This document shows, in pieces, positions 1 through 43,642 of a stretch of 64,000 nucleotides of DNA. Numbering within the stretch: the stretch's first letter is position 1; the number at the start of each line of letters is the position of its first letter. A program made the translations under genes and the position numbers. This DNA is from Kiritimatiellota bacterium (lineage in GTDB: Bacteria > Verrucomicrobiota > Lentisphaeria > Oligosphaerales > JAADHN01): contig JAADHN010000166.1 in assembly GCA_013151865.1 (NCBI GenBank), positions 2,792 through 66,791 of the forward strand. The letters run 5' to 3'. The notes beneath the pieces are model-generated. The model searched no databases and had not been told where the DNA came from. It saw only the letters and a program-made list of their open reading frames with translations.

Positions 1-644
1 AACTGACCGAAAGTGTACCGTTTTGCCGGTAAGGGCAGAACTCGGTTCGAGGCAACCTCGGGCAATCGCTCGTAGGGCAACACTTGGTTCAGTGTTTTCC
101 CAATCAATGGGATTTCTACGACTGCCGGCAGTCGCGGCTTGTCAAGCTCTAGGATGAACAACCAAGGTTTGCATGGACACCAGAGCCCGAGGAGTCGCCT
201 GACCGAGCACCGGGTGTGGCGAGATGTCAACTTGTCTTCAAAGTAAAATCCATTATAAAACTGACGGAACTTGGCGTCGATGGGTATCACCGCAGGCCAT
301 CCTTGATCGTCTTCTTGTTTCTTTTCGGACATTCGTGCCACCAGCGAACCCAACAAGGAAATATGCGCAAATGGCATAGGACTGGCCTTTATAAACTTTT
401 CCAGTTCTTCCCTGTCGGCAACCCCGACGGCCCACCAAGGCGGAACCGCCAAAAGGCTCTCTGTTTCGTACGGCTGGGTGCGCAGCCGTGTTGTTAATTC
501 CTTGAGAGCATCCGCGGCGCGTCCACAAGAACGAATATCCAGATGCTTGCTGTCGGTATTCCAATCTTCCGGGTAGACCGCCACAACTTTATGAAGATCA
601 TGCGCTAACCTACGCGCGGCTTCGAGGACTGGATCTCGCGTCAT
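1..644 (-). CDS. hypothetical protein, C-terminus cut by the window edge (absent from the ORF track because no stop lies inside the window)
   Basis: Hand translation of the minus strand from ATG at 644..642 is open all the way to nt 1 (MTRDPVLEAARRLAHDLHKVVAVYPEDWNTDSKHLDIRSCGRAADALKEL...). GGAGG (revcomp of 651..655) lies 6 nt upstream of the ATG. No family recognised. Confidence 0.45.
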   Translation of the reverse strand, partial: MTRDPVLEAARRLAHDLHKVVAVYPEDWNTDSKHLDIRSCGRAADALKELTTRLRTQPYETESLLAVPPWWAVGVADREELEKFIKASPMPFAHISLLGSLVARMSEKKQEDDQGWPAVIPIDAKFRQFYNGFYFEDKLTSRHTRCSVRRLLGLWCPCKPWLFILELDKPRLPAVVEIPLIGKTLNQVLPYERLPEVASNRVLPLPAKRYTFGQ

Positions 645-902
645 GATAGACCTCCCGAATCATGGGACTACGACCTGATCCGAAACCCAACACTCAGCAA
701 TCCAGGAACTTGGCGCCCCCCTTTGCTGTCGCCGCAAGACGGGGCTGAGTCCCAGAGAATACCCGGGTCATTCTCTCCGAACTCCCGAAGCCCTTGGCCG
801 GGGATGCAGCTGCCGACTGCGAACACTGAACCAACAGACGGGATCGATTCCGGATTGGCGCTCCGTCGAATGCTTCGGGCGCGACTCGTCCCCGTCTCCG
901 GT

Positions 903-2528
903 TTAGGCATATTGGTCGTCCTCACCGTCTTGGCGACATTCCAATGGAGGATCATGGACTTCCGTATCGTCATCGTCTGACCAGTGGTAGAGATCGTCGA
1001 AGAACTCGGGATAGACCTCCCGAATGCGACAGTACAAACTCAACTGCCTGAGCAAGGTGGCACGGTTCACTCTACACGCGAGGCGTTTGTCGACGCCCCA
1101 GTCCGACCCGGTCGTTGTCCTAACGCTTGGGCAAAGGCCGCAAATCGGCAGGGCCCAGCATCTGAGGCATTCCTCCGCATTGCTATCATAGAATCGCCGA
1201 ACAATGTCAACTGAACGTTGAGGCTCGATACCAGTGAGTACATCACCGATGCACAGATCAACACACTGCGAGTTCGCCCGCTCGCAAGGAAAGAGCCGAC
1301 CGTCAACCGTCACAAAGAGTCGCTGTTCGCCGGGTAGGCAGCAACCGGGAGGACTCAGCGTTCCATTCGCCCAAAGGCCGACCTGAGCATTCCGCAGATG
1401 GATCAATCTCATATCCTTGAGCCCAAGGAAGGCCCCGGTAATGCCAAGACGTTTGTGTGCACTCGGATCGCCGTCCCGAAGGTGTGCAACTACCTCAAGC
1501 AGCTCCCGTTCGATGGAATTTCGCTGGCGACGCCAATTTTTCCAAGACTCTGGATCACCGACTTTTCCCTTCAAACCACCCGCTCGAATCCACGCCACGC
1601 TGACGGGGGCGGAGGAATCGGGCAGGAATTTGCAGTCGCGAAAGAAATCCAGTGCCGGCAACCAGGAATCGGGCGAAGCGACAGTGCAAGCAACCCGGAC
1701 ATGCTGGTCATACCATTCCTTGTCCAAAGAGCGTAGGGCCTGGAGCGTCCTGATCACCTTCTGAAACGTTCCGCCTCCATTTCGCGTGACCCGCTGCGCG
1801 TCATGGATATGTTCCGGTCCGTCCAGACTTACAGTGACATGAAATTGGTTTTCAATCAAGAATCTCATAATTCCTTTGCTCAGATTGACACCGTTGGTCG
1901 TGAGAGCGAAAACTACTGCCCGGTTCTGGAACAGATTCTTTGCATAGCCAACCAGTTCCTTTATGAGTTCGAACTCTAAAGTCGGTTCCCCTCCATAAAA
2001 AGAAAGAATCACAGATTCTTCCTCACCGGAATGGTCGGCAAAATAACAGACTGCACGTCGTCCAATGTCCCCGGACATTGATTGGGTGGAATGCGAAGGC
2101 CATTGTGGATATCGGTCGCCAAACACGCAATACGAGCAGCGGAGGTTGCAGCCTTCAGTGACACCCAAAATCAAGTGATTCACCCGGCGGGATAGAGCAC
2201 GCTCCGCATCGGCTACGGACAAGCCGGAATCGATGCTTACACTTTCCCTTGGAACGAACAGACCGTAATCGCGCCTTGTTTCCTCGATCCACAAACCGAG
2301 CGGAGTCGAACACGCTTGTGGATAATGAAGTGACAGTGCGCTTTCCATCGGCGCGTCGACTTGGCGGGATGGAGCCCTTTCGCAGGAGACCGAAGGGGGA
2401 ACTTGAACAATGTGGCCCGACGAGCCGTCAAAAAGATACGTTTGGCTGTCTGTAGAAAACAGCGCTACGGGCGACACGGGTTTTCTGAAGGGGTTCAAAA
2501 GTTTCCTCCGGTTATCATCTGAACTCAC
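903..2528 (-). CDS. radical SAM / SPASM-domain enzyme (anSME-like peptide or protein maturase)
   Basis: CxxxCxxC radical SAM motif in GVTEGCNLRCSYCVFG. C-terminal SPASM-type cysteines: CLPGEQRLFVTVDGRLFPC (C-x12-G-x4-C), CLRCWALPICGLC, then a late Cys in ACRVN. About 110-aa N-terminal extension before the core. The GTG start at 2528 overlaps the TGA stop of the upstream small ORF (GTGA). Confidence 0.85.
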   Translation of the reverse strand: MSSDDNRRKLLNPFRKPVSPVALFSTDSQTYLFDGSSGHIVQVPPSVSCERAPSRQVDAPMESALSLHYPQACSTPLGLWIEETRRDYGLFVPRESVSIDSGLSVADAERALSRRVNHLILGVTEGCNLRCSYCVFGDRYPQWPSHSTQSMSGDIGRRAVCYFADHSGEEESVILSFYGGEPTLEFELIKELVGYAKNLFQNRAVVFALTTNGVNLSKGIMRFLIENQFHVTVSLDGPEHIHDAQRVTRNGGGTFQKVIRTLQALRSLDKEWYDQHVRVACTVASPDSWLPALDFFRDCKFLPDSSAPVSVAWIRAGGLKGKVGDPESWKNWRRQRNSIERELLEVVAHLRDGDPSAHKRLGITGAFLGLKDMRLIHLRNAQVGLWANGTLSPPGCCLPGEQRLFVTVDGRLFPCERANSQCVDLCIGDVLTGIEPQRSVDIVRRFYDSNAEECLRCWALPICGLCPSVRTTTGSDWGVDKRLACRVNRATLLRQLSLYCRIREVYPEFFDDLYHWSDDDDTEVHDPPLECRQDGEDDQYA

Positions 2529-2806
2529 GCGATCAAGCTATCCTTCTGGGAATCCGTGGAGCCCCCAGTTATCATTTGAGTAGCCGCCTTGGCAGTGGCA
2601 AAAACACCGGTCTCCTTTACGCAAATGCAGCTGCACGACAAGCAGATTCCGCACCCACTATCACTGCAAAGTAATCTGCTGCGTGGGGAGGTTGGCACAA
2701 CAAGCGGTTCGTCTTTCTTACGGACGATCCCCTCCAGAACACTCAAAGGGATAAGCAGTGCAGTGGCCGAACTGCCGACAGTTCTCGCGAATTCACGCCT
2801 GGACAT
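2525..2806 (-). CDS. small Tat-signal protein with a six-cysteine cluster (candidate substrate/precursor of the adjacent radical SAM enzyme)
   Basis: The ATG at 2806 is preceded by GGAG (..CCGGAGACGGGCATG). The product starts MSRREFARTVGSSATALLIPLSVLEG, a twin-arginine signal pattern (SRREF plus hydrophobic stretch). The core is LLCSDSGCGICLSCSCICV, six Cys in 16 residues. The track ORF extends upstream to a GTG at 2914 (ATG also at 2872), so the start is uncertain. Its stop overlaps the start of the rSAM gene. Confidence 0.55.
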   Translation of the reverse strand: MSRREFARTVGSSATALLIPLSVLEGIVRKKDEPLVVPTSPRSRLLCSDSGCGICLSCSCICVKETGVFATAKAATQMITGGSTDSQKDSLIA

Positions 2807-2965
2807 GCCCGTCTCCGGCGCGGTATTTCGACCTTGTTCCCTTTGCTGTTGGCGACTTTTCTTGGCACTCATTCTCGGGCTCTCCTTTGTCGTGCTGGTC
2901 TGGGGCTCGGCCACATGTTCTGGAGCAAGTGCGTTTGTTCTGGTGCAGGCGTTTGCCGGTTCTCC

Positions 2966-4936
2966 TTAGTGCGCCTTCTCCACATTCACAATTACAGGCA
3001 ATTCCAAAGTGCGGGGTACGGGGCCATCGACGACAATCCGCACTTTTCCGGTGTGCCGACCAGGCGGCAGCGCGGTCGACAACACCGCCCGGATTTCATA
3101 CCACTCCCCGGAAAACCATCCGGTAGGCGTGGTCTTCAGGTGCTTTACTGAAACATCAAGATATTTGGGTTTTCCACGGAGCTGTAGATGAACAGGCCCG
3201 AAAGCGTGAAGTCTGACTGCCGCCCAAGGACGGCTCTTCTCCTGGGGTCTCCGGGAAGACGAATCAATCACAAGTTGGTCAGCCTCCAAACGCAAGGGAT
3301 GCTTGCGCCAAGCGCGGATTTGCATGAACCAGGCTTCCGGCGACCGCAAGTCGTCACGTCGAACTTTGCCGAAGGCCACGATCGCGGCCTCGGCCTCGTC
3401 AAACCGTCCAAGACTCACCAGCCAATTCGCCTTCTCCACCCACCGAACCAATTGCAGATCCTCCCCCGGGTCGCTGCCCTTGCAGTCGGGTATACTGTCC
3501 AGCGTAGCCAACGCTTTATCGTGTCGCCCCAGTTTCCAGAGCAGGCCCGCTTCACGGTGCAGAAACGTCGCGTACTCCGGCGTGCCCGGTCCAACGACAC
3601 GGGCCGCCTCCCGAGTGAGTTTCAGTGCCCCCGTGAAGTCCCCCCGAGCCCGGAGAACATCGAAGGCGAGGTCGGCTTTGGCAATGGCCGCCAGACGACG
3701 GCAGCCGGAATACTGCGAGATGACCAGCCGATAAACAGTTTCCGCCTTTTTCAGACATCCTTCGTCGACCCACTTTCCCTCGTGAGCCCATGAATAAGCA
3801 ATTTTGAGCCAAGCGGTCGCACAAATCTCGGCATCTCCGGGGAAGTCCTTAATAACTTCTTGGGCGATCTGCCGGGTGCGCTCGTAATCCTGGGTTTCCA
3901 AAGCAAGATGCGCGGCATGCAGTCGCAGGCGTGCGCCCTGCCATGGGGCGAGTTGTGGCGATTTGGCCGCCGACAGAAGAGTGCCGACAGCTTTTCCTTT
4001 TTTCCCGCGCCGCTGCAAGATGTCCGCGTATGTGCGTGCTGCCCGATAAACAGCATTTGCGTCCTCAGCGCTGTCAAGGGCGAGTTTTGCCAAGCGCTGT
4101 GCGCCGTCAAGAATGCCGCGTTCGTTCAGCATCTCCGCGGCCACGCGTGCGACATCCGTCCGCACCGGGCTTTTTCCGTCACATTCGCTGATCTCGGTAC
4201 ACGTCTCGATCGCCTCGACGTATTCGGACTCGTCCCAATTCTCTTGATGCGCATACAGCCTGAGCAGCACCTTCACCCCTTCCTCCCAGGAAGCGGTGCC
4301 GCGGAAGTCGGAACCCAGTCTCTGGAGTGAGGCGATTGCGCGCTTCTTTTGGCCAAGTCGGATCCGGCAATAAGCACTTCGCAATAGCGCCTCAGACGCG
4401 ATCTCAGGGTCATGGTCCAGGCCGCCTGCGCGGTCAAACCAATCCGCGGCTTCCGCGTACTGCTTCCTCTTCAATGCTTCGTATGCGAGTCTTCGGAAAA
4501 TCGGTTGCGCCTGAGGGGAAGTGCCGTAGTCTGCCAAAAGTCGCTCGCGCAGCTTGTTCGCTCGCGCGTCATCCCCTTTTTCCCGCCAATATCGCTCCAA
4601 ACGAGCCAAAGCCATGGGGGCGAAAACGGTTTGTCCATAATCATCGACTACCTGGGTGAACGCCTGGATCGCCGACCCATCTTTGCCTGACCTCAGTCGT
4701 GTTTCTCCCAACCGGTAAAGCGCGCGTGCCGCCTGCTGTTTGTCCCGCCCGCGGAAGGCGTTGTGCGCGTCTGTGAATACCTGCTCCCAAGTGGCGGACT
4801 GGGGTCCGGCCTGCCCGACAGCGCTCTGCTTGGCGGCGACGGCAGTCTGGATCCAGCACGCCGACCAACAAGTCACTACAAGGAAGAAGCGAAGGAATAA
4901 ATGTGTCGGTCGGCCGAACACCGAATGCCTCCCCAC
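2966..4936 (-). CDS. secreted TPR-repeat protein with C-terminal beta-sandwich-like domain
   Basis: N-terminal signal-like segment (LFLRFFLVVTCWSACWIQTAVAA). Repeated TPR-like helical stretches (ARALYRLGETRLRSGKDGSAIQAF.., YAEAADWFDRAGG.., AVYRAARTYADILQRRGKKGKA..). Same strand as, and 51 nt upstream of, the longest form of the small Cys ORF. Confidence 0.7.
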   Translation of the reverse strand: MGRHSVFGRPTHLFLRFFLVVTCWSACWIQTAVAAKQSAVGQAGPQSATWEQVFTDAHNAFRGRDKQQAARALYRLGETRLRSGKDGSAIQAFTQVVDDYGQTVFAPMALARLERYWREKGDDARANKLRERLLADYGTSPQAQPIFRRLAYEALKRKQYAEAADWFDRAGGLDHDPEIASEALLRSAYCRIRLGQKKRAIASLQRLGSDFRGTASWEEGVKVLLRLYAHQENWDESEYVEAIETCTEISECDGKSPVRTDVARVAAEMLNERGILDGAQRLAKLALDSAEDANAVYRAARTYADILQRRGKKGKAVGTLLSAAKSPQLAPWQGARLRLHAAHLALETQDYERTRQIAQEVIKDFPGDAEICATAWLKIAYSWAHEGKWVDEGCLKKAETVYRLVISQYSGCRRLAAIAKADLAFDVLRARGDFTGALKLTREAARVVGPGTPEYATFLHREAGLLWKLGRHDKALATLDSIPDCKGSDPGEDLQLVRWVEKANWLVSLGRFDEAEAAIVAFGKVRRDDLRSPEAWFMQIRAWRKHPLRLEADQLVIDSSSRRPQEKSRPWAAVRLHAFGPVHLQLRGKPKYLDVSVKHLKTTPTGWFSGEWYEIRAVLSTALPPGRHTGKVRIVVDGPVPRTLELPVIVNVEKAH

Positions 4937-5345
4937 CGTACCAGATGCGGCTTCGATGTTCGCGCTTCGTCCGCGTGCCGAACGCGCCGGGAGGCAATCG
5001 CGCTATTGGGCAAACCGAATCCGGTCAGGTGTCGGGAATGAAGAATAACGCGGGAAAGCAGGCTGAAGAATCAGCCTGTACAAGACGTGGGGGGGGAGGC
5101 AGCAAAAGATTGGTCCCACTCCCAGGAAAGTGGAAGAATATCGATGTTCCCCGTACTCCGCACTGTTCATCGAAGGCCCCTCTCGCCGACCTCAACCAAG
5201 GCCCGGACATGCAGGTCATAAGGAGCAGCTTCGGCCGCTGTTTGGGTACATTAAGACTTCAATTACAACTTTGTCAAGTGCTCCAACCGATTCTCTACAG
5301 TGAAGGGCCATTTTCGGGGGGCTCTGAGCACGGATTTTGTCGTTG

Positions 5346-5442
5346 AATGACTGGGGAGAATGACTGGAATGACTGGGGACGGGCTTTTTGTAATGACTGG
5401 AATGACTGGAATGACTGGATGACTGGGGACGGGCTTTTTGTA
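5346..5442. repeat. tandem array of the 9-nt unit AATGACTGG (7 copies), nested in a duplicated higher-order unit
   Basis: Units at 5346-5354, 5359-5367, 5368-5376, 5392-5400, 5401-5409, 5410-5418 and 5419-5426 (the last lacks its first A). The 22-nt string GACTGGGGACGGGCTTTTTGTA is exactly duplicated at 5371-5392 and 5421-5442. Confidence 0.9.
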
Positions 5443-5771
5443 GTTGACTTTCGGCAGGGGGCGGGTATGGTATGAGACTTGCCGACCGAACGAGCCGGCG
5501 CGCCGCTCCCAAGGCAAGGCAAGCTCGCCGGATCGGCGCTCCATCCCGGTGCAAGGCCGGGGGCGGCGGACACGGCTCACGAGGCCGTTTTCCCTCCAGA
5601 ACGACGCGGAATGCGCAAGGGGCGGGGTGCAGACGGACAAGAAGGAACAAAATGCCGAAGTGGCCTTCGGCGGCCCCAGGGAAGACAAATGCCGGACTGG
5701 TCCGCCTTCGTTTGCATAACTTCGGCGAGACAAGCTGACCGGCGGCCCCAGGGGCGGAAAGGAACGGTGCA

Positions 5772-6737
5772 ATGCGGAGTGCCAGAATACGATACGACCG
5801 GGAGTTGTGCTATTATCACCTCCTGAACCGAGTGGCGGGCGAGCGGAGTTTTTTTCCGTTCGGCGATGTAGAAAAAGAACAGTTCTTCCGTTTGGCCTTG
5901 CACCTGACGAAGCTGTACACGGTCGAGCTGCTGTCGCTGGTGGTGATGTCGAATCATTATCATATTGTCTGCGCGGCGCCGACGGCGCCGCCCGGCAAGG
6001 AAGAGATTCAGCGGCGCTGGCGGGCGTACTACGGCGAAAAGAAGATCATCGAACCGAACTGGGACGATCCGGATGTGGTTGCTGCGTGGGGAGCACGGAT
6101 GCGGGACATTGCGTGCTTCCTCAAAGACCTGCAGCAGCGGTATACGTCGTGGTTTAACCGGACGCGCCCGACGCGGCGTCGGGGTACGCTGTGGGCGGAC
6201 CGGTACAAGAACGTGATCCTGGAAGGCGAAACGGCGTTGTGGGACTGCATTCGATATGTGGAAATGAACCCGGTGCGCGCGAGGATTTGCGCGGACCCCG
6301 CGGAATACAGGTTTTCGACTTGGGGCCGATTCGCGGGGAGCGGCCGCCACCCGTTCCGGGCGAACGTGGTCCGGCACTTACGGCGATATCTCGGGGAACG
6401 TGCACGGGGTTGGACGGGGACGCGAGTGCTGGCGGAATTGAACGCGGATATGGCCCGGGTTGCGGCCTCGGAGCGCGGGGAGACGGAAGAAACCTTTGCG
6501 GCGGAAGGGGCGGGGCGCAAGGCCCCGGCGTTCGTGCTGACGGTGCGGCGCCGGGTGCGATACTGGTCGGACGGCGCGATCATCGGATCGAAGCTGTTTG
6601 TTCGGAACCTGGGGGCGGAATTGATCAATCGGGAGCGTGCGCCGAAAAAGCGGTTGGCGCGATCGCGGTCGCCGGGCGGGGGCGGTACTCTCGGGGGGCT
6701 GTACTCGTGGCGGCTCCTGCGGGTGGATGTGCAGTGA
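5772..6737 (+). CDS. IS200/IS605-family Y1 (HUH) transposase-like protein, REP-associated tyrosine transposase (RayT)-like
   Basis: YHLLNRV.., an HUH motif in VVMSNHYHIVCAAP, and a conserved C-terminal Tyr context WDCIRYVEMNPVRARI typical of Y1 transposase-like proteins. No terminal inverted repeats of a classical IS seen. Confidence 0.8.
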   Translation: MRSARIRYDRELCYYHLLNRVAGERSFFPFGDVEKEQFFRLALHLTKLYTVELLSLVVMSNHYHIVCAAPTAPPGKEEIQRRWRAYYGEKKIIEPNWDDPDVVAAWGARMRDIACFLKDLQQRYTSWFNRTRPTRRRGTLWADRYKNVILEGETALWDCIRYVEMNPVRARICADPAEYRFSTWGRFAGSGRHPFRANVVRHLRRYLGERARGWTGTRVLAELNADMARVAASERGETEETFAAEGAGRKAPAFVLTVRRRVRYWSDGAIIGSKLFVRNLGAELINRERAPKKRLARSRSPGGGGTLGGLYSWRLLRVDVQ

Positions 6738-6976
6738 CCCGAAACCCGCCGCAAAGGCCGCATGCGGCAAGAGAGGTCTTGTTGCACTGGAAGGTGGTCG
6801 ATACGGATAGGGATCCGATCTCGACATCAATGGGGCCTGGACGCAATTGATCGCCGGGCGGGAGCGCCTCCCGCATTGGAGGCAGGATCCCATGGGAAAG
6901 GCGCCGGGGGTTTTATCGTTTGACAGACGGTATGTATGATTTCGGCTCTGCGGCGCGTCGCCCTCCAGGAGGCACG

Positions 6977-7004
6977 GCTCTCCCGCTCAGCGGAATCGTC
7001 CGCC
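6977..7004. repeat. REP-like GC-rich hairpin repeat, copy 1 (GCTCTCCCGCTCAGCGGAATCGTCCGCC)
   Basis: Imperfect palindrome CCGCT/C/AGCGG. It shares the core GCTCTCCCGC-N3-4-GCGG(G)A with copies at 12927, 13031 and 24770. The tail CGGAATCGTCCGCCAA recurs as CGGGATCGTCCGCCAA at 7141-7156. Confidence 0.45.
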
Positions 7005-7078
7005 AATACGGCGCGGCGGGCCCGGACGTTCCGCAGTTCTCTTTCTGCGTCCGCTGCGTTTGCCGGGGTTCAGTTTAT

Positions 7079-7107
7079 ATCCGCGTTCATTCGTGTTCAT
7101 CCGCGGT
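7079..7107 (+). repeat. 29-nt intergenic motif built from three phased ~10-mers, copy A (ATCCGCGTTCATTCGTGTTCATCCGCGGT)
   Basis: 25/29 identical to 25305-25333. Related, with a 2-nt insertion, to 15839-15872. Internal decamer periodicity: CCGCGTTCAT / TCGTGTTCAT / CCGCGGTTCG. Confidence 0.6.
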
Positions 7108-7446
7108 TCGACATGCCGACTGGAACGCGGTCCGGCCAAACGGGATCGTCCGCCAAAGCCGAGTTCAGCGCCGAGGGCTGGGGATTGCAGCGCTATCTGC
7201 GAGCGCGTTACGCCGCGGATCCCGTGTCGCCGCGCGCGGCCGGACCAAGCGGCGTGGCCCGCGCGGTAGAGTATCACCGGCACTGACCGCCGAATGCGTG
7301 TGGGAGAATGCTCTGGAGCGGGAATGTCCCGCAACACCGGTTGCACTTGCAGAGAACGTCCCCGCGGTTACCTTTTCCGATCGGGGCGCCGTTGTCGGGA
7401 TCCGCGAAAGATATGGGCAATCGAGTCAAGAGAGGGAAAGCGACTG

Positions 7447-8469
7447 ATGAAGCTTTTCGATCGAGCTGAAGAGATCCGGTGCGGCGTGGTCGGGTACGGG
7501 GCGTCTTTCCACATGGGCCGGCATCACCTCAACGCCATGGCGGCCGCCGGGATGAAGCCGGTGGCCGTGGCGGACATCGATCCCGCTCGCCTGCCCGCGG
7601 CGGAAGCGGAATTCCCGGGAATCAAGACCTACCCGTCGACAACGGCGATGCTCGCCGACTGCGACCTGGATCTGGTCGGCGTGATCACGCCTCACAACGC
7701 GCACGCCTGCGTGGCCCTGGAATGCCTCGAAGCCGGGAAACATGTGGTAACCGAGAAGCCCTTCGCTATCACCACCGAAGAATGTGACGCCATGATCGCC
7801 GCCGCGAAAACCCACGATGCAATGCTCTCGGTGCATCACAACCGCCACTGGGACGGCTGCATCCTGAAGGCCCTCGAGAACATCCGCTCGGGCATGATCG
7901 GAGAGATCGTCCGCATCGAGGCGCACATGGGCAGCTACCGCCCGCCTCGGGACTGGTGGCGAGCCAGCAAAAGCATCTCGGGCGGTATCAATTACGATTG
8001 GGGCGCACACTTTCTCGAGTACGCCCTGCAGTTGATCGACAGCGATACTGTGGAGGTTGCGGGTTTCGCACGCAAGGGGTATTGGGCGCCCCGAAGTCCG
8101 TGGGGCGACGATGCGATCGAGGACGAAGCCTTCACCGTGGTCCGTTTCGCCAACGGCGTCCCCCTCACCTTGCTGGTCACCCAGCTCGAGAGCAATCCTC
8201 GAGACGGCTGGTTCGACATTACGGGCACACAAGGCAGTTACCGGTTTGACCACCAGCGCTGGCAAGCCATGATCCACGAGGACGGCGGCACGGTCTACCG
8301 GGAAGGACCGAGCCCGGCGTCCGAATCCTGGCGCTTCTACCGGAACATCGCGGCACATCTGACCCGGGGCGAACCGCTGATCATCACCGCGGAATGGGCG
8401 CGCCGCACCATTCGCATTCTGGATCTCGCCGACCAAAGCGCGAACAACGGCCGCGCCCTCCCCGCTTGA
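7447..8469 (+). CDS. Gfo/Idh/MocA family oxidoreductase
   Basis: Start chosen at MKLFDRAEEIRCGVVGYGASFHMGRHHLN, a Rossmann GxGxxxxxxH pattern typical of the family. Also VVTEKPFAITTEECDAMIAAA (EKP motif). The longer track ORF from 7294 adds an Arg-rich leader that looks non-coding. Confidence 0.85.
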   Translation: MKLFDRAEEIRCGVVGYGASFHMGRHHLNAMAAAGMKPVAVADIDPARLPAAEAEFPGIKTYPSTTAMLADCDLDLVGVITPHNAHACVALECLEAGKHVVTEKPFAITTEECDAMIAAAKTHDAMLSVHHNRHWDGCILKALENIRSGMIGEIVRIEAHMGSYRPPRDWWRASKSISGGINYDWGAHFLEYALQLIDSDTVEVAGFARKGYWAPRSPWGDDAIEDEAFTVVRFANGVPLTLLVTQLESNPRDGWFDITGTQGSYRFDHQRWQAMIHEDGGTVYREGPSPASESWRFYRNIAAHLTRGEPLIITAEWARRTIRILDLADQSANNGRALPA

Positions 8470-39261: not shown

Positions 39262-40470
39262 ATGAAACCATTGGGTCGCAAGATCGCTTGGGGTGTTTGG
39301 CTGGCATTGGCTGCCTTTGGCACGTGGGGCGTCTATCTGCGCATGACTACGGGGCATCGGCTTGCCAATTACGGCAGTTATTTCCCTTGGGGATTATGGG
39401 TGGCGGTGTACGTCTATTTCAGCGGCATGTCTGCCGGCATCTTTCTGCTGTCGATGTTCGTTGCCGTATTCCGCATCCGCCCCCTCGCGAGGCTGGTCCG
39501 CCCGGGACTGTTTATCTCCGCAATCGCTCTTCTGGTGGCCCTGTTGTCCATCTCCTTCGATCTCGGGCACATGTTCCGCGCCCCCGAAGTGTTTTTGCGA
39601 CCCAATTTTCACTCCGTAATGACCTTGATGGCTTGGCTGTACGCCGCCTATTTTCCAATCATTCTGGTCGCGCTTTGGTTGGATCTGCGCGGCGATCCGT
39701 CGCTTCATGCCCAACGGGACGACGCGTCGGGCGGCCAGGCCCGCGAGCCGGCCCGACAACGGGGCGAACGCTGTTTGCGTTGCATCGGCTGGCTCGGCAT
39801 TCCCCTCGCCGTGGTGTTCTCGAGTGGGCTTGGCGGTCTTTTCGCCACGCTTCCAGCAAAGCCGTATTGGTACCAGTCTCTGTATCCTGTCCTTTTTCTG
39901 GTCGGCGCACTTTTGTCCGGAAGCGCTCTGATGTTGGCAGTGGTGTCGGCGGGGCAGCGTTTTCAGGACGAGGAAGGCGTGCGCTTGCGGCGGATTCTGG
40001 TTCGAATCGTTCTCGGGCTGTTGGCGTTCGACATCATTATCGAATCGGCCGAGATACTCGTCCCGATGTGGTATGCCGTCGGACCCGAGTACCATCTATA
40101 CAGGACCATCCTGTTCGGGCGGTTCGCCGTTCTGTTCTGGGTGGTTCACGTACTTTTTGGCATTGCAGTACCCCTCGTCCTTCTGATCGCCAAGCCCTGT
40201 TGCCGCTGGGCCGCCGCCGCAGCGGGCATATTGATCGCCGCCACTTTTCTGGCCGTGCGGCTGATTCTGATTCTGCCGGGCGAGATCACGCCCGAAATCA
40301 AAGGACTGCGCGAGGCCTACGCCGACCCGCGACTCTCTTTTTCGTACGTTCCGTCCACGTTTGAATGGGCTGTGGTCGCTTTTCTTATTGCTCTGGGTTG
40401 GGCCGTCTTCGTTTTGGGCAACCGCACCCGGCTCTTTCGGGACGCCGGAACGGTCCCGGACAAGGCTTGA
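39262..40470 (+). CDS. NrfD/PsrC-family integral membrane anchor subunit, TtrC-like
   Basis: Start MKPLGRKIAWGVWLALAAFGTWGVYLRMTTGHRLANYGSYFPWGLWVAVYVYFSGMSAG, the characteristic NrfD-family opening. Multiple hydrophobic helices follow throughout. Confidence 0.85.
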   Translation: MKPLGRKIAWGVWLALAAFGTWGVYLRMTTGHRLANYGSYFPWGLWVAVYVYFSGMSAGIFLLSMFVAVFRIRPLARLVRPGLFISAIALLVALLSISFDLGHMFRAPEVFLRPNFHSVMTLMAWLYAAYFPIILVALWLDLRGDPSLHAQRDDASGGQAREPARQRGERCLRCIGWLGIPLAVVFSSGLGGLFATLPAKPYWYQSLYPVLFLVGALLSGSALMLAVVSAGQRFQDEEGVRLRRILVRIVLGLLAFDIIIESAEILVPMWYAVGPEYHLYRTILFGRFAVLFWVVHVLFGIAVPLVLLIAKPCCRWAAAAAGILIAATFLAVRLILILPGEITPEIKGLREAYADPRLSFSYVPSTFEWAVVAFLIALGWAVFVLGNRTRLFRDAGTVPDKA

Positions 40471-40504
40471 GTCTGGAAGTCCCGAGAAGGAGAACCAACG
40501 GATT

Positions 40505-43500
40505 ATGAATCAGCCACGGCAAGAGAAACAGGCCGATGGCCTGAGCCGTCGTGAGTTCCTGGGCTCTTCGGCCTTTGTCGGCGGCATGGCGGCATTTGCT
40601 TCGCAACTGGTCGGTTGTCGCGCCTTCCGCGAAATGAACAGCGGGGCGATCGGCTCATATGCCCTGGCTGATCCGAAAAACACCCTGTACACCACCTGCC
40701 TCCAGTGTCATTTGGCCTGCCCGATCAAAGTCAGAGTCTGGGAAGGGACGCCCGCCAAATTGACCGGCAGCCCTTACAGCCCACAGAACTATCTGCCGCA
40801 CCTCCCCTACGAGACTTCCCCGGACCAGGCCGCGCCGGCGGACGGCAAACTGGACGTCAAAGGGCAAAGCGGGGTCCAGACCTACGGTGATCCGTACCGA
40901 CTCCGCCGTGTACTGAAGCGCCAGGGCCCTCGGGGATCGAACAAGTGGCGGGTCGTGGAATTCAACCAGTTCATCGAGGAAGTCGTCACCGGCGGCAAGC
41001 TGTTTGCCGAAATCGGAGACGAACGCCATTACCCCGGATTCGACGAGGTCTACGCCTTGCGCGACCGAGATTTGGCCCGGCGGATGGCCGCCGACGCCAA
41101 GAAGGTTGGGGCGGGAACGATGACGCTCGCCGCGTTCAAACAGCAGTACAGTGCGGACCTGGACAAGCTCATCGACCCGGACCACCCGGACCTCGGCCCC
41201 AAGAACAATGGGTTCGTTTTCCAAGCAGGCCGCATCGAGCACGGCCGCAAGGAATTGATGAAATGGTTCACCCATGACAGCTTCGGTTCGAACAACGCCT
41301 ACGAGCATACCACCATCTGCGAACAGTCACACCACATTGCCTTCAAGCAGATGACCGGCAAGACGCACATGAAGCCGGACCTCCTCAATTGCGAATTCGT
41401 CTTGTTCTGGGGGACCGGCGCCTTCAGCGCAAACTTCGGATTGACATGCATGGCGGAGAAAGTCACGACCGGAACAATCAGCGGACGTTTGAAAACGGCG
41501 GTTGTCGACCCGCGTCTTTCCAACGATGCCGGCAAGGCCGACTGGTGGCTGCCCGTCAAGCCCGGGGCGGATGGGGCCCTGGCACAATGGATGATCCGCT
41601 GGATACTTGAGAACAAACGATATGACGCGCGGTATCTCGCCAACGCGAACAAGGCCGCCGCCCAAGCCGACCATGAACCGACTTGGACCAATGCCACACA
41701 TTTGGTCAAAATCGTGGACGGGCATCCGTTGCAACGCATGACGGCTGCCGAAGCGGGGGTCGGTTCGGACAACGAGTTCGTCGTATCGCACCGCGGAAAG
41801 TTGCTCGCGGTGGCGGACGACCCCAAACGCCCCGTGGAAGGGGACCTCCTGGTCGACGCAACCGTCAACGGGACGAAAGTGAAGAGCGCATTCCAACTGT
41901 TGTGGGATGAAGCTTTCGGGCGTACCCCGGACCAGTATGCCCGGATAACCGGACTGCCGCCTCGCCTGGTCGAAGAGGTCGCCCGAGAGTTGACCAGTCA
42001 CGGCAAACGCGCCGCCGTGGACATGTATCGGGGCGCGGTGCAGCATACCGACGGCTTTCACACCGGCTGCGCAATCGTCACACTGAACATGCTGATCGGC
42101 AACTTTGATTGGAAAGGCGGGCTGCAGGTCGGCGGCGGCCACTGGCATGAATCGGGGGGCAAAGCGGCGAGCATTTACAACTTCAAGAAAATGCATCCCG
42201 CCAAGATGCCGAAGTTCGGCCCGCCGATTTCACGGGAAAAAAGCCGCTACGAAGACTCCAGCCTGTTTCGTGACGCCGGATATCCCGCCAAACGGCCCTG
42301 GTATCCCTTTACGGGCAATCTGTACCAGGAAATCATCCCGTCCTTCGCCCAAGGATACCCGTACAAAGGCCGGATTCTCTTCCTGCACAAAGGGACCCCG
42401 GCACTGGCCTCCCCCGCCGGAGACAAAGTGATCGGCATGTTGGAAGACCCCGCAAAAGTGCCGCTGTTCATCTCATCGGACATCGTCATCGGTGAAACCA
42501 CCATGTACGCCGATTACATCGTCCCGGACGTGACTTACTTCGAACGGTGGGCGACCCCTCACGCCACTCCCGACGTGCCCACCAAAACCAGTAAAGTGCG
42601 CCAACCTGTTGCCAAGCCCTTGACCGAAGAGGTGGAAGTCGACGGCGAACGCATGCCCCTCTGTTTGGAAACGTTTCTCATCGCGGTGGCCAAGAAACTG
42701 AACATGCCCGGATTCGGCCGGGGAGCATTTGTCGGTCACGGCGATTTCCATCGCAGCGAGGATTGGTTCCTCAAACTGGTCGCCAACATCGCCGTGGGGG
42801 ACAAGGCCGGCGAACGCGTTCCGGATGCCGACGACGCGGAATTGGCGCTCTTCCGCCAAGCACGGCGGCACTTGCCCCCAAGCGTATTCGACGAAACCAA
42901 ATGGAAGCGCGCCGTTTTGCCTGAATTGTGGCGCAAGGTGGTCTATGTGCTCAACCGGGGCGGACGTTTCGCGAGTTTCGGGACAACCTACGACGGCGAA
43001 TACATGAAGAGCAGGTTCGGGAAGGCGGTCCACCTGTTCATGGACGACGTCGCCGGCCAACGCAACAGTCTGTCCGGGAAATTCTTCATTGGGTATCCGG
43101 CATATCGGGGCCAATACGATTCATCGGGCAAGCCCCTGGACGGCGAGGGCGCTTATTCGTTGGCGCTGATCACGTTCAAGGAGCCGATCGGCGGGCAATC
43201 GAGGACCATCTCCAACTACTGGGGCAACATCGCACTCAAGAACGAAAACGCTTTTGTGCTCAACCCGGTCGACGCACGTCGCCTCGGATTGGCGGACGGA
43301 CAACTCGCCCGGCTGCGGTCCACGGCGAACCCACAGGGCGTCGTGGATTTGGGGAACGGCGGACAAAAGGAGCTGGTCGCCAAAGTCGCCGTGAGCGAAG
43401 GCATCCGGCCCGGCGCCGTCGCGGTCAGCTGGCACTACGGACATTGGGCATACGGCTCCGCCGACGTTATCGTGAACGGCCGGCGGATTGTCGGCGATCG

Positions 43501-43642
43501 GCGGCGTGCCGCCGGCATTTGCCCGAACCACGCAATGGCCGTTGATCCAATCCTGAAGGATGTCTGCCTGACCGATCCCATCGGCGGCAGCGCCAGCTTC
43601 AACGACACATTCGTGACGTTGACTCCGGCGGTTTCATCGTAA
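40505..43642 (+). CDS. Tat-exported molybdopterin (bis-MGD) oxidoreductase catalytic subunit, tetrathionate reductase TtrA-like (~1045 aa)
   Basis: Tat signal LSRREFLGSSAFVGGMAAFA. N-terminal FeS motif CLQCHLACPIKVRV (CxxCxxxC). Strings that I recall as TtrA-like: IRWILENKRYDARYL, WTNATHLV, RPWYPF, GYPYKG, YADYIVPDVTYFERW, FLIAVAKKLNMPGFG. Its size and B-C-A gene order match the ttr operon rather than psr/phs. Confidence 0.85.
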   Translation: MNQPRQEKQADGLSRREFLGSSAFVGGMAAFASQLVGCRAFREMNSGAIGSYALADPKNTLYTTCLQCHLACPIKVRVWEGTPAKLTGSPYSPQNYLPHLPYETSPDQAAPADGKLDVKGQSGVQTYGDPYRLRRVLKRQGPRGSNKWRVVEFNQFIEEVVTGGKLFAEIGDERHYPGFDEVYALRDRDLARRMAADAKKVGAGTMTLAAFKQQYSADLDKLIDPDHPDLGPKNNGFVFQAGRIEHGRKELMKWFTHDSFGSNNAYEHTTICEQSHHIAFKQMTGKTHMKPDLLNCEFVLFWGTGAFSANFGLTCMAEKVTTGTISGRLKTAVVDPRLSNDAGKADWWLPVKPGADGALAQWMIRWILENKRYDARYLANANKAAAQADHEPTWTNATHLVKIVDGHPLQRMTAAEAGVGSDNEFVVSHRGKLLAVADDPKRPVEGDLLVDATVNGTKVKSAFQLLWDEAFGRTPDQYARITGLPPRLVEEVARELTSHGKRAAVDMYRGAVQHTDGFHTGCAIVTLNMLIGNFDWKGGLQVGGGHWHESGGKAASIYNFKKMHPAKMPKFGPPISREKSRYEDSSLFRDAGYPAKRPWYPFTGNLYQEIIPSFAQGYPYKGRILFLHKGTPALASPAGDKVIGMLEDPAKVPLFISSDIVIGETTMYADYIVPDVTYFERWATPHATPDVPTKTSKVRQPVAKPLTEEVEVDGERMPLCLETFLIAVAKKLNMPGFGRGAFVGHGDFHRSEDWFLKLVANIAVGDKAGERVPDADDAELALFRQARRHLPPSVFDETKWKRAVLPELWRKVVYVLNRGGRFASFGTTYDGEYMKSRFGKAVHLFMDDVAGQRNSLSGKFFIGYPAYRGQYDSSGKPLDGEGAYSLALITFKEPIGGQSRTISNYWGNIALKNENAFVLNPVDARRLGLADGQLARLRSTANPQGVVDLGNGGQKELVAKVAVSEGIRPGAVAVSWHYGHWAYGSADVIVNGRRIVGDRRRAAGICPNHAMAVDPILKDVCLTDPIGGSASFNDTFVTLTPAVSS

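Follow-up and report, generated by a model that had tools for sequence, protein, structure and literature searches.

What becomes of a small cysteine-rich protein that is encoded directly upstream of a radical S-adenosylmethionine (SAM) enzyme and that begins with what resembles a twin-arginine signal? This question is raised by a locus on the minus strand of a 64,000-nucleotide stretch of DNA (the window) from contig JAADHN010000166.1 of a Kiritimatiellota metagenome-assembled genome (MAG). The locus consists of a precursor peptide gene (2525..2872) and the gene of a radical SAM/SPASM peptide maturase (903..2498). The pair has a recognizable family placement, and its twin-arginine segment, leader, and cysteine positions are under purifying selection. 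The best overall explanation is a two-gene system of the kind that makes ribosomally synthesized peptides with post-translational modifications (RiPPs), in which a cross-linked peptide would be exported by way of twin-arginine translocation (Tat). The probability of this explanation is put at about one half.

A Conserved Precursor Gene and Its Only Known Relative

Three open reading frames (ORFs) share the minus strand and the same orientation, as reported in the preliminary description of this DNA: a 656-residue ORF at 4936-2966, a small ORF ending at 2525, and a 541-residue ORF at 2528-903. The small ORF has candidate starts at 2914, 2872, and 2806, giving products of 129, 115, and 93 residues, and is apparently unannotated. 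All three products are absent from a collection of 15 billion proteins that holds the adjacent radical SAM protein (from NCBI and IMG); evidently, neither annotation picked up the precursor gene. A word-indexed homolog search with the 93-residue peptide gave no match. An exhaustive HMMER search of 1.84 billion representatives revealed a sole relative, P0046, with 110 residues and 50% identity (E 4e-21). P0046 is encoded on a 714-bp contig in ENA (L086), where a radical SAM gene begins 26 nt past its stop codon. The product of that gene (MRSVSFNDKTVVLFST..FVFDGSSAHIVQVP..WIEETRR) is homologous to the N-terminus of the window enzyme. The preliminary description had made its proposal depend on a homolog of the small ORF with the same arginine pair and cysteines. 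All of these are conserved in P0046, which adjoins the same type of radical SAM enzyme. A viral scan with the alignment of the two peptides gave no match, nor did any other peptide with a cysteine cluster turn up when the full window was scanned in all six frames.

Codon comparison with P0046 gives a ratio of nonsynonymous to synonymous substitution rates (dN/dS) of 0.29 for the whole peptide gene. The basic n-region (residues 1-22, 2807-2872) has 8 of 21 residues identical and a dN/dS of 0.76. It is followed by a Tat-signal-like module (residues 23-48, MSRREFARTVGSSATALLIPLSVLEG, 2729..2806) with 19 of 26 residues identical and a dN/dS of 0.34; the twin arginine of this module lies at 2795-2800, and its uncharged h-region spans 16 residues. 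The most constrained part of the gene is a core-proximal leader block (residues 49-68, IVRKKDEPLVVPTSPRSRLL, 2669..2728), in which 15 of 20 residues are identical, nine differences are synonymous, and dN/dS falls to 0.14. Taken together, residues 23-68 show 34 of 46 identities, 16 synonymous differences, and a dN/dS of 0.23. In length and position, residues 49-68 match the whole leaders of the peptides found beside relatives of the enzyme, and they are predicted to be the segment recognized by the maturase and its RiPP recognition element (RRE). The core (residues 69-84 of the 115-residue form, CSDSGCGICLSCSCIC, 2621..2668) carries six cysteines within 16 residues, which agrees with the count given before; GMSRREFARTVGSSATALLIPLSVLEG lies upstream of it. 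The core of P0046 (CKQGGCFCDCICDC) keeps all six cysteines, with a four-residue indel that shifts their spacing. A variable tail of 31 residues, rich in T, S, A, D, and Q, completes the peptide (2528..2620), with only 5 of 31 residues identical and a dN/dS that is not computable. The features conserved between the two peptides are thus the SRREFA motif, the hydrophobic stretch, the EPLVVPTSPRS block, and the six cysteines.

The leader is usually the most conserved part of RiPP precursors. By the codon comparison, the small ORF is translated and subject to purifying selection, with the tightest constraint on the leader, and a spurious ORF is ruled out by this codon-level conservation. The 129-residue form gave a weak match to the CnrY/NccY anti-sigma family (E 0.075, 13.5 bits; cut-off 35), which was discarded as noise and probably arises from the hydrophobic segment.

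The start of the peptide had previously been placed at ATG 2806. ATG 2872 is now preferred because P0046 begins at the equivalent codon and aligns from residue 2; AGGAG stands upstream of ATG 2872 in the window and upstream of the P0046 start. The peptide thus most likely has 115 residues, with the arginine pair at residues 25-26. The maturase probably starts at TTG 2498, leaving a 26-nt gap after the peptide stop and giving 531 residues. This start is favored because it is the NCBI gene call (531 residues, NOY82907.1), because GGAGG lies 6 nt 5' of it, and because the ATG of the radical SAM gene beside P0046 aligns exactly with it. The alternative, GTG 2528, would give 541 residues and overlaps the peptide stop codon (GTGA at 2525-2528). 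Translational coupling through this GTGA had been proposed; the overlap is present, but the preference for TTG 2498 makes coupling doubtful. In-frame NTGA overlaps are kept in both loci (GTGA 2525-2528 in the window, ATGA 454-457 in L086), and the GTGA start is regarded as uncertain. In both loci the two candidate starts of the radical SAM gene lie exactly 30 nt apart (2498-2528 in the window, 454-486 in L086), one being the NTGA at the peptide stop and the other an internal TTG or ATG behind CGG(A/G)GG. This sequence, which resembles a Shine-Dalgarno element, lies 6 nt 5' of TTG 2498 and of the L086 ATG, while the residues that it encodes differ. At the protein level, the ten codons between the two candidate starts are not conserved between the window and L086.

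The Radical SAM/SPASM Enzyme

The enzyme had been described as a radical SAM protein with a full SPASM cysteine set, and this description holds across 26 aligned relatives. It scores 56 bits against PF04055, above the gathering threshold of 29.5, and carries the CX3CX2C cluster motif of that family (C127/C131/C134, 2127..2150), which is invariant in the 26 sequences; Fer4_12 was also matched. A SPASM region is recognized by a C-terminal pattern of seven cysteines, CX9-15GX4C ... CX2CX5CX2-3C ... C, which holds two auxiliary clusters. The window enzyme has C397-x12-G-x4-C415, C454-x2-C457-x5-C463-x2-C466, and C485 (1074..1340), again invariant in the alignment, and these seven cysteines align to the SPASM cysteines of CteB. 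The Pfam searches suggested earlier gave a divided answer, with PF04055 clearly matched but no match to the Pfam SPASM model at E<=0.1 and none to the PqqD model (PF05402). Both assignments, SPASM and RRE, are based on the cysteine pattern, on the family-level alignment to CteB, and on an AlphaFold2 model.

The best of all family matches is CcpM/TIGR04068, which scores 262 bits over residues 108-505 against a cut-off of 500. It is followed by RumMC (NF035951; 207 bits, cut-off 720), PapB (NF047865; 165 bits, cut-off 340), QhpD (TIGR03906; 131 bits, cut-off 453), the SCIFF maturase (TIGR03974; 125 bits, cut-off 425), and anSME (TIGR03942; 101 bits, cut-off 349). Because the top NCBIfam matches are all peptide maturases and all lie below their cut-offs, the enzyme belongs, on profile evidence, as a divergent member to the thioether-forming SPASM maturases and is an equivalog of no named family. 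The closest proteins among 5.8 billion clusters are 31-33% identical.

Structural comparison points the same way. The profile of the enzyme family matches CteB (PDB 5WGG) from end to end, N-terminal domain included, with an E-value of 2e-67, whereas the alignment of the same profile to anSME structures begins only at profile position 114. The AlphaFold2 model (pLDDT 80, pTM 0.83) retrieves 5wgg as top Foldseek match (E 4e-20). The N-terminal extension of ~110 residues had been suggested to be an RRE, a domain defined by an N-terminal three-stranded sheet with three helices (a winged helix-turn-helix) or by a PF05402 match. The suggestion is supported at family level, where positions 8-110 of the profile correspond to residues 4-100 of CteB, within its N-terminal (RRE) domain. 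In the window enzyme the predicted domain (residues ~18-115 in 541-residue numbering, 2184..2477) is modeled with strands at 21-25, 30-34, and 40-43 and a helix at 76-88 ahead of the TIM-barrel core, while residues 49-72 have a pLDDT below 50. The extension is thus probably RRE-like and partly degenerate in this enzyme.

Pairing with Cysteine-Rich Peptides in Related Loci

Eighty-five loci of relatives of the enzyme were fetched and scanned for short cysteine-rich ORFs. A short ORF with a CxCxC-type core was found near the radical SAM gene in ~60 of the 85, usually directly upstream at 160-350 nt, and sometimes just downstream. Examples are the cores ..KSCTCGCACGNGG.. in L001, ..RACSCSCIDKC.. 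in L003, ..KRCACGCDGG...CFCGCTGG in L004, and ..MACACGCPCSCICEPG.. in the Planctomycetota locus L057. The peptides of the Firmicute type have the form MKKLGKK..GTL.AFACxCxC, and three of them scored 28.8, 30.9, and 21 bits against TIGR04065 (cut-off 26 bits), so that two of the three reach the cut-off; one further neighbor peptide matches TIGR04067. The window peptide and P0046 have no match to TIGR04065 at E<=10.

The proposal that the SPASM enzyme modifies the small protein encoded next to it is well supported by this pairing, and the adjacent cysteine-rich ORF is the probable substrate of the maturase. Since the enzyme clade is generally paired with CxCxC-core peptides, the window pair is, by its sequence relationships, of a known kind: predicted sactipeptides or ranthipeptides in a divergent branch of the CLI_3235/CcpM type. 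The combination had been thought to fall outside any described RiPP class. This view does not hold for the architecture of enzyme and cysteine core, and only the Tat-like signal is new.

Variants of the pair are found in some of the related loci. In L004 (1958-6500, an Aminicenantes MAG) and in L005, the leader of a 70-residue peptide is of the double-glycine type (ELSKITGG), two CxCxC motifs occur in this peptide, the gene of an NHL-repeat protein is inserted between peptide and SPASM maturase, and a second, smaller radical SAM gene is present. The neighbor peptide of L057 (2521-2991, a Planctomycetota MAG) has two cysteine blocks, CACGCPCSCIC and CACGCLC. The first block has SCSCIC/CSCIC in common with the window core, and the peptide is without a signal-like segment.

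A Twin-Arginine Signal-Like Module ahead of the Leader

The small protein had been proposed to carry a Tat leader, with modification in the cytoplasm and subsequent export. A Tat motif has the form S/T-R-R-x-F-L-K within the first ~35 residues. The window peptide has S-R-R-E-F-A-R at residues 24-30 and P0046 has S-R-R-E-F-A-A, so that RREFA is invariant. An h-region of at least ~13 uncharged, mildly hydrophobic residues is expected past the arginine pair; 16 uncharged residues are found in the window peptide and 19 in P0046, with 15-residue Kyte-Doolittle maxima of 1.95 and 1.77. The basic n-region ahead of the arginines carries eight K/R. Similar signals occur elsewhere. A TtrA-like molybdopterin oxidoreductase encoded in the window (40361-43642, plus strand), which scores 467 bits against the tetrathionate reductase TtrA and so lies under the cut-off, served as the positive control for Tat usage in this genome. 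It has a clear Tat signal, GLSRREFLGSSAFVGGMAAFASQLVG, with the same SRREF motif and a score of 16.3 bits against TIGR01409 (cut-off 16.7), and the organism therefore uses Tat. An unrelated amidohydrolase from an actinobacterium (L087) has a Tat signal to which residues 4-41 of the peptide are 45% identical. The amidohydrolase was the only match in a metagenome scan with the two-peptide alignment, for which GMSRREF and the N-terminus, not EPLVVPTSPRS, served as patterns.

The module is confined to this subfamily. In the peptides of the relatives, 15-36 residues precede the first cysteine; in the window peptide there are 46, counted from M23, and the ~25 extra residues coincide with the Tat-like module. 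In six-frame scans of 87 loci, an arginine pair followed by an uncharged run and a cysteine cluster was found only in the window and in L086, apart from one match in L040 that looks spurious, and no Tat-like signal was seen in the peptides of the other enzyme relatives. The novelty of the window system lies in this conserved module, which resembles a twin-arginine signal and stands upstream of the leader. The arginine pair and the cysteines of the earlier proposal are thus conserved, whereas export is read from the sequence alone; judged in this way, the odds that the peptide leaves the cytoplasm by Tat are about even.

Several features of the module weigh against export. The L-K position of the Tat consensus is A-R in the window peptide and A-A in P0046. 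No AxA site for signal peptidase I was found in the c-region of either ortholog, where a conserved LEG|I places an acidic residue after the h-region. The Tat models TIGR01409 and PF10518 are silent on the peptide; they likewise missed the amidohydrolase Tat signal, and their silence carries little weight because one of two control Tat signals was thus also missed.

The missing AxA site and the silent Tat models would fit an alternative in which enzyme and substrate are the same, but the arginine pair and hydrophobic segment form an extended leader, serving, for example, as a second maturase-binding or membrane-association element, and the product leaves by an unlinked transporter or stays cell-associated. 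As leaders are usually the most conserved part of RiPP precursors, conservation alone is no proof of export, and the atypical RRE-like domain of this subfamily might need extra contacts. None of the ~60 peptides of the relatives, however, needs such a segment. S-R-R-x-F with a basic n-region and 16-19 uncharged residues is the standard layout of a Tat signal, and the module resembles real Tat signals in the genome of the window and elsewhere. An extended leader is accordingly considered a serious minority possibility, with perhaps half the weight given to Tat export.

It is less probable still, and indeed unlikely, that the segment is a general-secretion (Sec) signal or an uncleaved anchor, with the peptide threaded unfolded or tethered to the inner membrane in a bufferin-like manner. 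The Kyte-Doolittle maximum of 1.95 for the hydrophobic stretch exceeds that of the TtrA-like Tat signal (1.51) and is close to that of the Sec-like signal of the neighboring 656-residue protein (1.87), and RiPP precursors with Sec signals are on record (PMC12452194). However, a long n-region, of about 28 residues, and an invariant SRREF are both typical of Tat and not of Sec, and the 16-residue uncharged run includes Pro, Ser, and Gly, whereas stable membrane helices tend to be longer.

Proposed Mechanism

In the preferred explanation, a cytoplasmic radical SAM/SPASM maturase with a CteB/CcpM-like fold would act on a 115-residue precursor encoded directly upstream. The precursor would comprise the n-region (1-22), the arginine pair with the h-region (23-48), the EPLVVPTSPRS(R/K)LL block (49-68), the core (69-84), and the tail (85-115). 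The N-terminal domain of the maturase would dock on the 49-68 block. Chemistry initiated by the 5'-deoxyadenosyl radical would then join core cysteines to carbons of other residues, probably in the tail, in sactionine or ranthionine thioethers. Sactipeptides and ranthipeptides are defined by thioethers that join cysteine sulfur to an alpha-, beta-, or gamma-carbon of the mature product. In hairpin sactipeptides, the cysteine donors are followed by a stretch that provides the acceptors. By analogy with this layout, tail residues 85-115 may supply the thioether acceptors. The cross-linked peptide, no longer fully unfoldable, would cross the inner membrane by Tat through its twin-arginine signal. 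Release might occur by cleavage after the conserved LEG, although confidence in this site is low, or the peptide might stay anchored in the periplasm. RiPP precursors normally depend on dedicated exporters; here the twin-arginine signal would stand in for the dedicated ATP-binding cassette (ABC) exporter and protease genes that are reported from the SacP23 cluster. The leader-binding domain might in addition behave as Tat proofreading chaperones do and retain the signal as long as modification is unfinished. This fuller version, with cross-linking in the cytoplasm, export by Tat, and a leader-binding domain that perhaps doubles as a proofreading chaperone, is held more tentatively, at somewhat less than even odds. 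AlphaFold2 modeling of an artificial fusion of peptide and enzyme from a single sequence gave a pLDDT of 40, which allows no judgement on leader docking.

Thioether formation by the maturase is predicted with rather more confidence than Tat export and is considered fairly probable, although there are points that count on the other side. The maturase lies below the cut-off of every characterized family, so that its chemistry is left unassigned by family, and the window peptide matches no precursor family. The RRE domain escapes Pfam detection and includes the low-confidence stretch at residues 49-72. The subfamily is known from two sequences only, the second of them on a 714-bp contig. Finally, the six cysteines could be engaged in metal binding or, once exported, in disulfides instead.

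From the six clustered cysteines and the Tat-like signal, which is the route of cofactor-containing proteins, it could be argued that the small protein is an exported Fe-S or metal-binding protein for which the radical SAM enzyme matures a cofactor instead of forming cross-links. Every close family match of the enzyme, however, is a peptide cross-linking maturase. The substrates of its relatives have a leader-plus-core build, with two of three reaching the cut-off of the bacteriocin-precursor model TIGR04065, and the cysteine spacing differs between the orthologs by the four-residue indel, which is unusual for a cluster site. A cofactor maturase is accordingly very improbable. The last candidate, an enzyme of the anSME or QhpD type with its partner elsewhere and an incidental small ORF, could draw on the weak sub-threshold matches and on the many sulfatases known from Kiritimatiellota, but it is effectively refuted by scores of 101 and 131 bits that lie far under 349 and 453 and also under those of CcpM, RumMC, and PapB, by an anSME alignment that lacks the N-terminal domain, and by the conservation of the small ORF next to an orthologous enzyme. 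No adjacent sulfatase gene was found among the window ORFs, and no adjacent qhpA, qhpB, qhpE, or qhpF among the window ORFs and Pfam matches.

Relation to Known Systems

Among known systems, CLI_3235/CcpM (TIGR04065/TIGR04068) is the most similar, with the highest-scoring enzyme family (262 bits), the same order of peptide and radical SAM gene, and a cysteine-rich CxCxC core. The window system differs from it in an enzyme below the cut-off of 500, in a peptide without a TIGR04065 match, and in the leader, which is MKKLGKK..GTL.AF in Firmicutes and is replaced here by the twin-arginine module and EPLVVPTSPRS. Its host is also a diderm Kiritimatiellota bacterium, unlike the Firmicutes of CLI_3235/CcpM. 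An expressed member of CLI_3235, SacP23 of Paenibacillus polymyxa, is active against Gram-positive bacteria, and its cross-links have not yet been mapped (PMC10731318). The SacP23 cluster has ABC transporter, protease, and immunity genes, whereas no exporter, protease, or immunity gene is visible among the window ORFs adjacent to the pair.

CteB, the maturase of the SCIFF ranthipeptide CteA, is the best solved structure by both profile and fold (5WGG), and its SPASM cysteines align with those of the window enzyme. Identity is about 19%, however, the TIGR03974 score is 125 against 425, the window substrate is no SCIFF peptide, and the model of the window enzyme renders the helices of the RRE poorly. 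RumMC, with ruminococcin C and other hairpin sactipeptides, is the second-best family at 207 bits and shares the presumed order of cysteine donors followed by an acceptor tail. It differs in that the score lies below the cut-off of 720, that the window precursor is much longer and includes a signal-like module, and that an alpha-carbon linkage is only putative in the window peptide.

Two further systems show that SPASM chemistry can precede export. QhpD is a SPASM enzyme that forms Cys-to-carbon thioethers in QhpC, a cytoplasmic polypeptide of ~100 residues whose product works in the periplasm. The window system may share with it the cytoplasmic modification of a polypeptide of ~100 residues with a periplasmic function, but it reaches only 131 bits against 453, lacks adjacent qhpA, qhpB, qhpE, and qhpF, and has a Tat-like motif that QhpC does not have. 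Sulfatases are modified in the cytoplasm by the SPASM enzyme anSME and then exported, which is likewise a case of a signal-bearing substrate modified ahead of export. The substrate of anSME is a large enzyme, however, the score is 101 against 349 bits, and anSME has no N-terminal RRE domain.

A signal peptide in place of a dedicated exporter also has a parallel outside the radical SAM enzymes. Bufferins and oxazolins, whose precursors are modified by MNIO enzymes, carry Sec signal peptides, which have been called rare among bacterial RiPPs (PMC12452194). They resemble the proposed window system in having a general-secretion signal instead of a dedicated exporter, a cysteine-based core, and a periplasmic destination, and they differ from it in that the enzyme is an MNIO and not a radical SAM enzyme and that the signal is of the Sec and not of the twin-arginine type. 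A Tat route for modified peptides has been raised as a speculation, and preliminary attempts were unsuccessful (PMC5686179). No natural RiPP with a Tat leader was found in the literature library that was searched, which is incomplete.

Genomic Surroundings

The 656-residue protein encoded upstream of the pair (2966..4936, minus strand) had been described as a secreted tetratricopeptide repeat (TPR) protein, and it has TPR Pfam matches and an N-terminus that is Sec-like by eye (..WIQTAVA|AKQ). It had also been counted as part of one compact unit with the pair, which is not supported. No homolog of it was found in the 87 related loci by tblastn, and its comparison with the upstream protein of L003 gave only a BLASTP E-value of 3.3. 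The gene upstream of P0046 ends ..KKNAKDIEELMNLSKKKE and is unrelated to the C-terminus of the TPR protein. With a G+C content of 0.594, the TPR gene stands between the peptide and radical SAM genes (0.54) and the rest of the window (0.636). Because it has no homolog in the related loci, because the gene upstream of the ortholog is different, and because its G+C content deviates, the TPR gene is not counted as a partner and is probably outside the system.

On the other side of the pair, an ORF of at least 214 residues (MTRDPVLEAARRLAHDLHKVV...) occupies 644-1 on the minus strand, 258 nt downstream of the radical SAM gene, and runs off the start of the window. Its G+C content is low like that of the radical SAM gene (about 0.53-0.54), and it has no Pfam match, no detectable homolog, and no counterpart in the 87 related loci. 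G+C content is 0.53-0.59 across positions 1-5000, which include the peptide, radical SAM, TPR, and downstream ORFs, and 0.636 across 7000-64000. The low G+C of this part of the window and of the L086 contig (0.49), compared with 0.636, suggests that the peptide-radical SAM pair was acquired horizontally. The low-G+C stretch is bordered by a gene resembling an IS200/Y1-type REP-associated tyrosine transposase (RAYT) at 5772-6737 on the plus strand (Y1_Tnp 29.9 bits; NF047646 53.8 bits, below the cut-off of 80). A 9-nt tandem array of about four copies (AATGACTGG) lies just upstream of this gene at 5358-5426. Rfam and tRNA scans of positions 1-8000 gave no match.

Biological Significance

General-secretion signals on RiPP precursors have been recognized only recently (PMC12452194). 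If the proposed reading is true, the window system would be the first Tat-routed radical SAM RiPP, and it would represent a periplasmic use of a chemistry otherwise employed in secreted bacteriocins. A natural precursor of this kind would couple cytoplasmic cross-linking to the export of the finished product, and would offer a ready-made design for delivering or displaying cross-linked peptides in the periplasm. Moreover, such a precursor would show that mining rules tuned to short leaders and nearby transporters miss such loci, a blind spot that is indicated here by a protein collection which holds the radical SAM neighbor but not the precursor. The window pair extends the systems of the CLI_3235/CcpM type from Firmicutes into the Planctomycetes-Verrucomicrobia-Chlamydiae (PVC) group.

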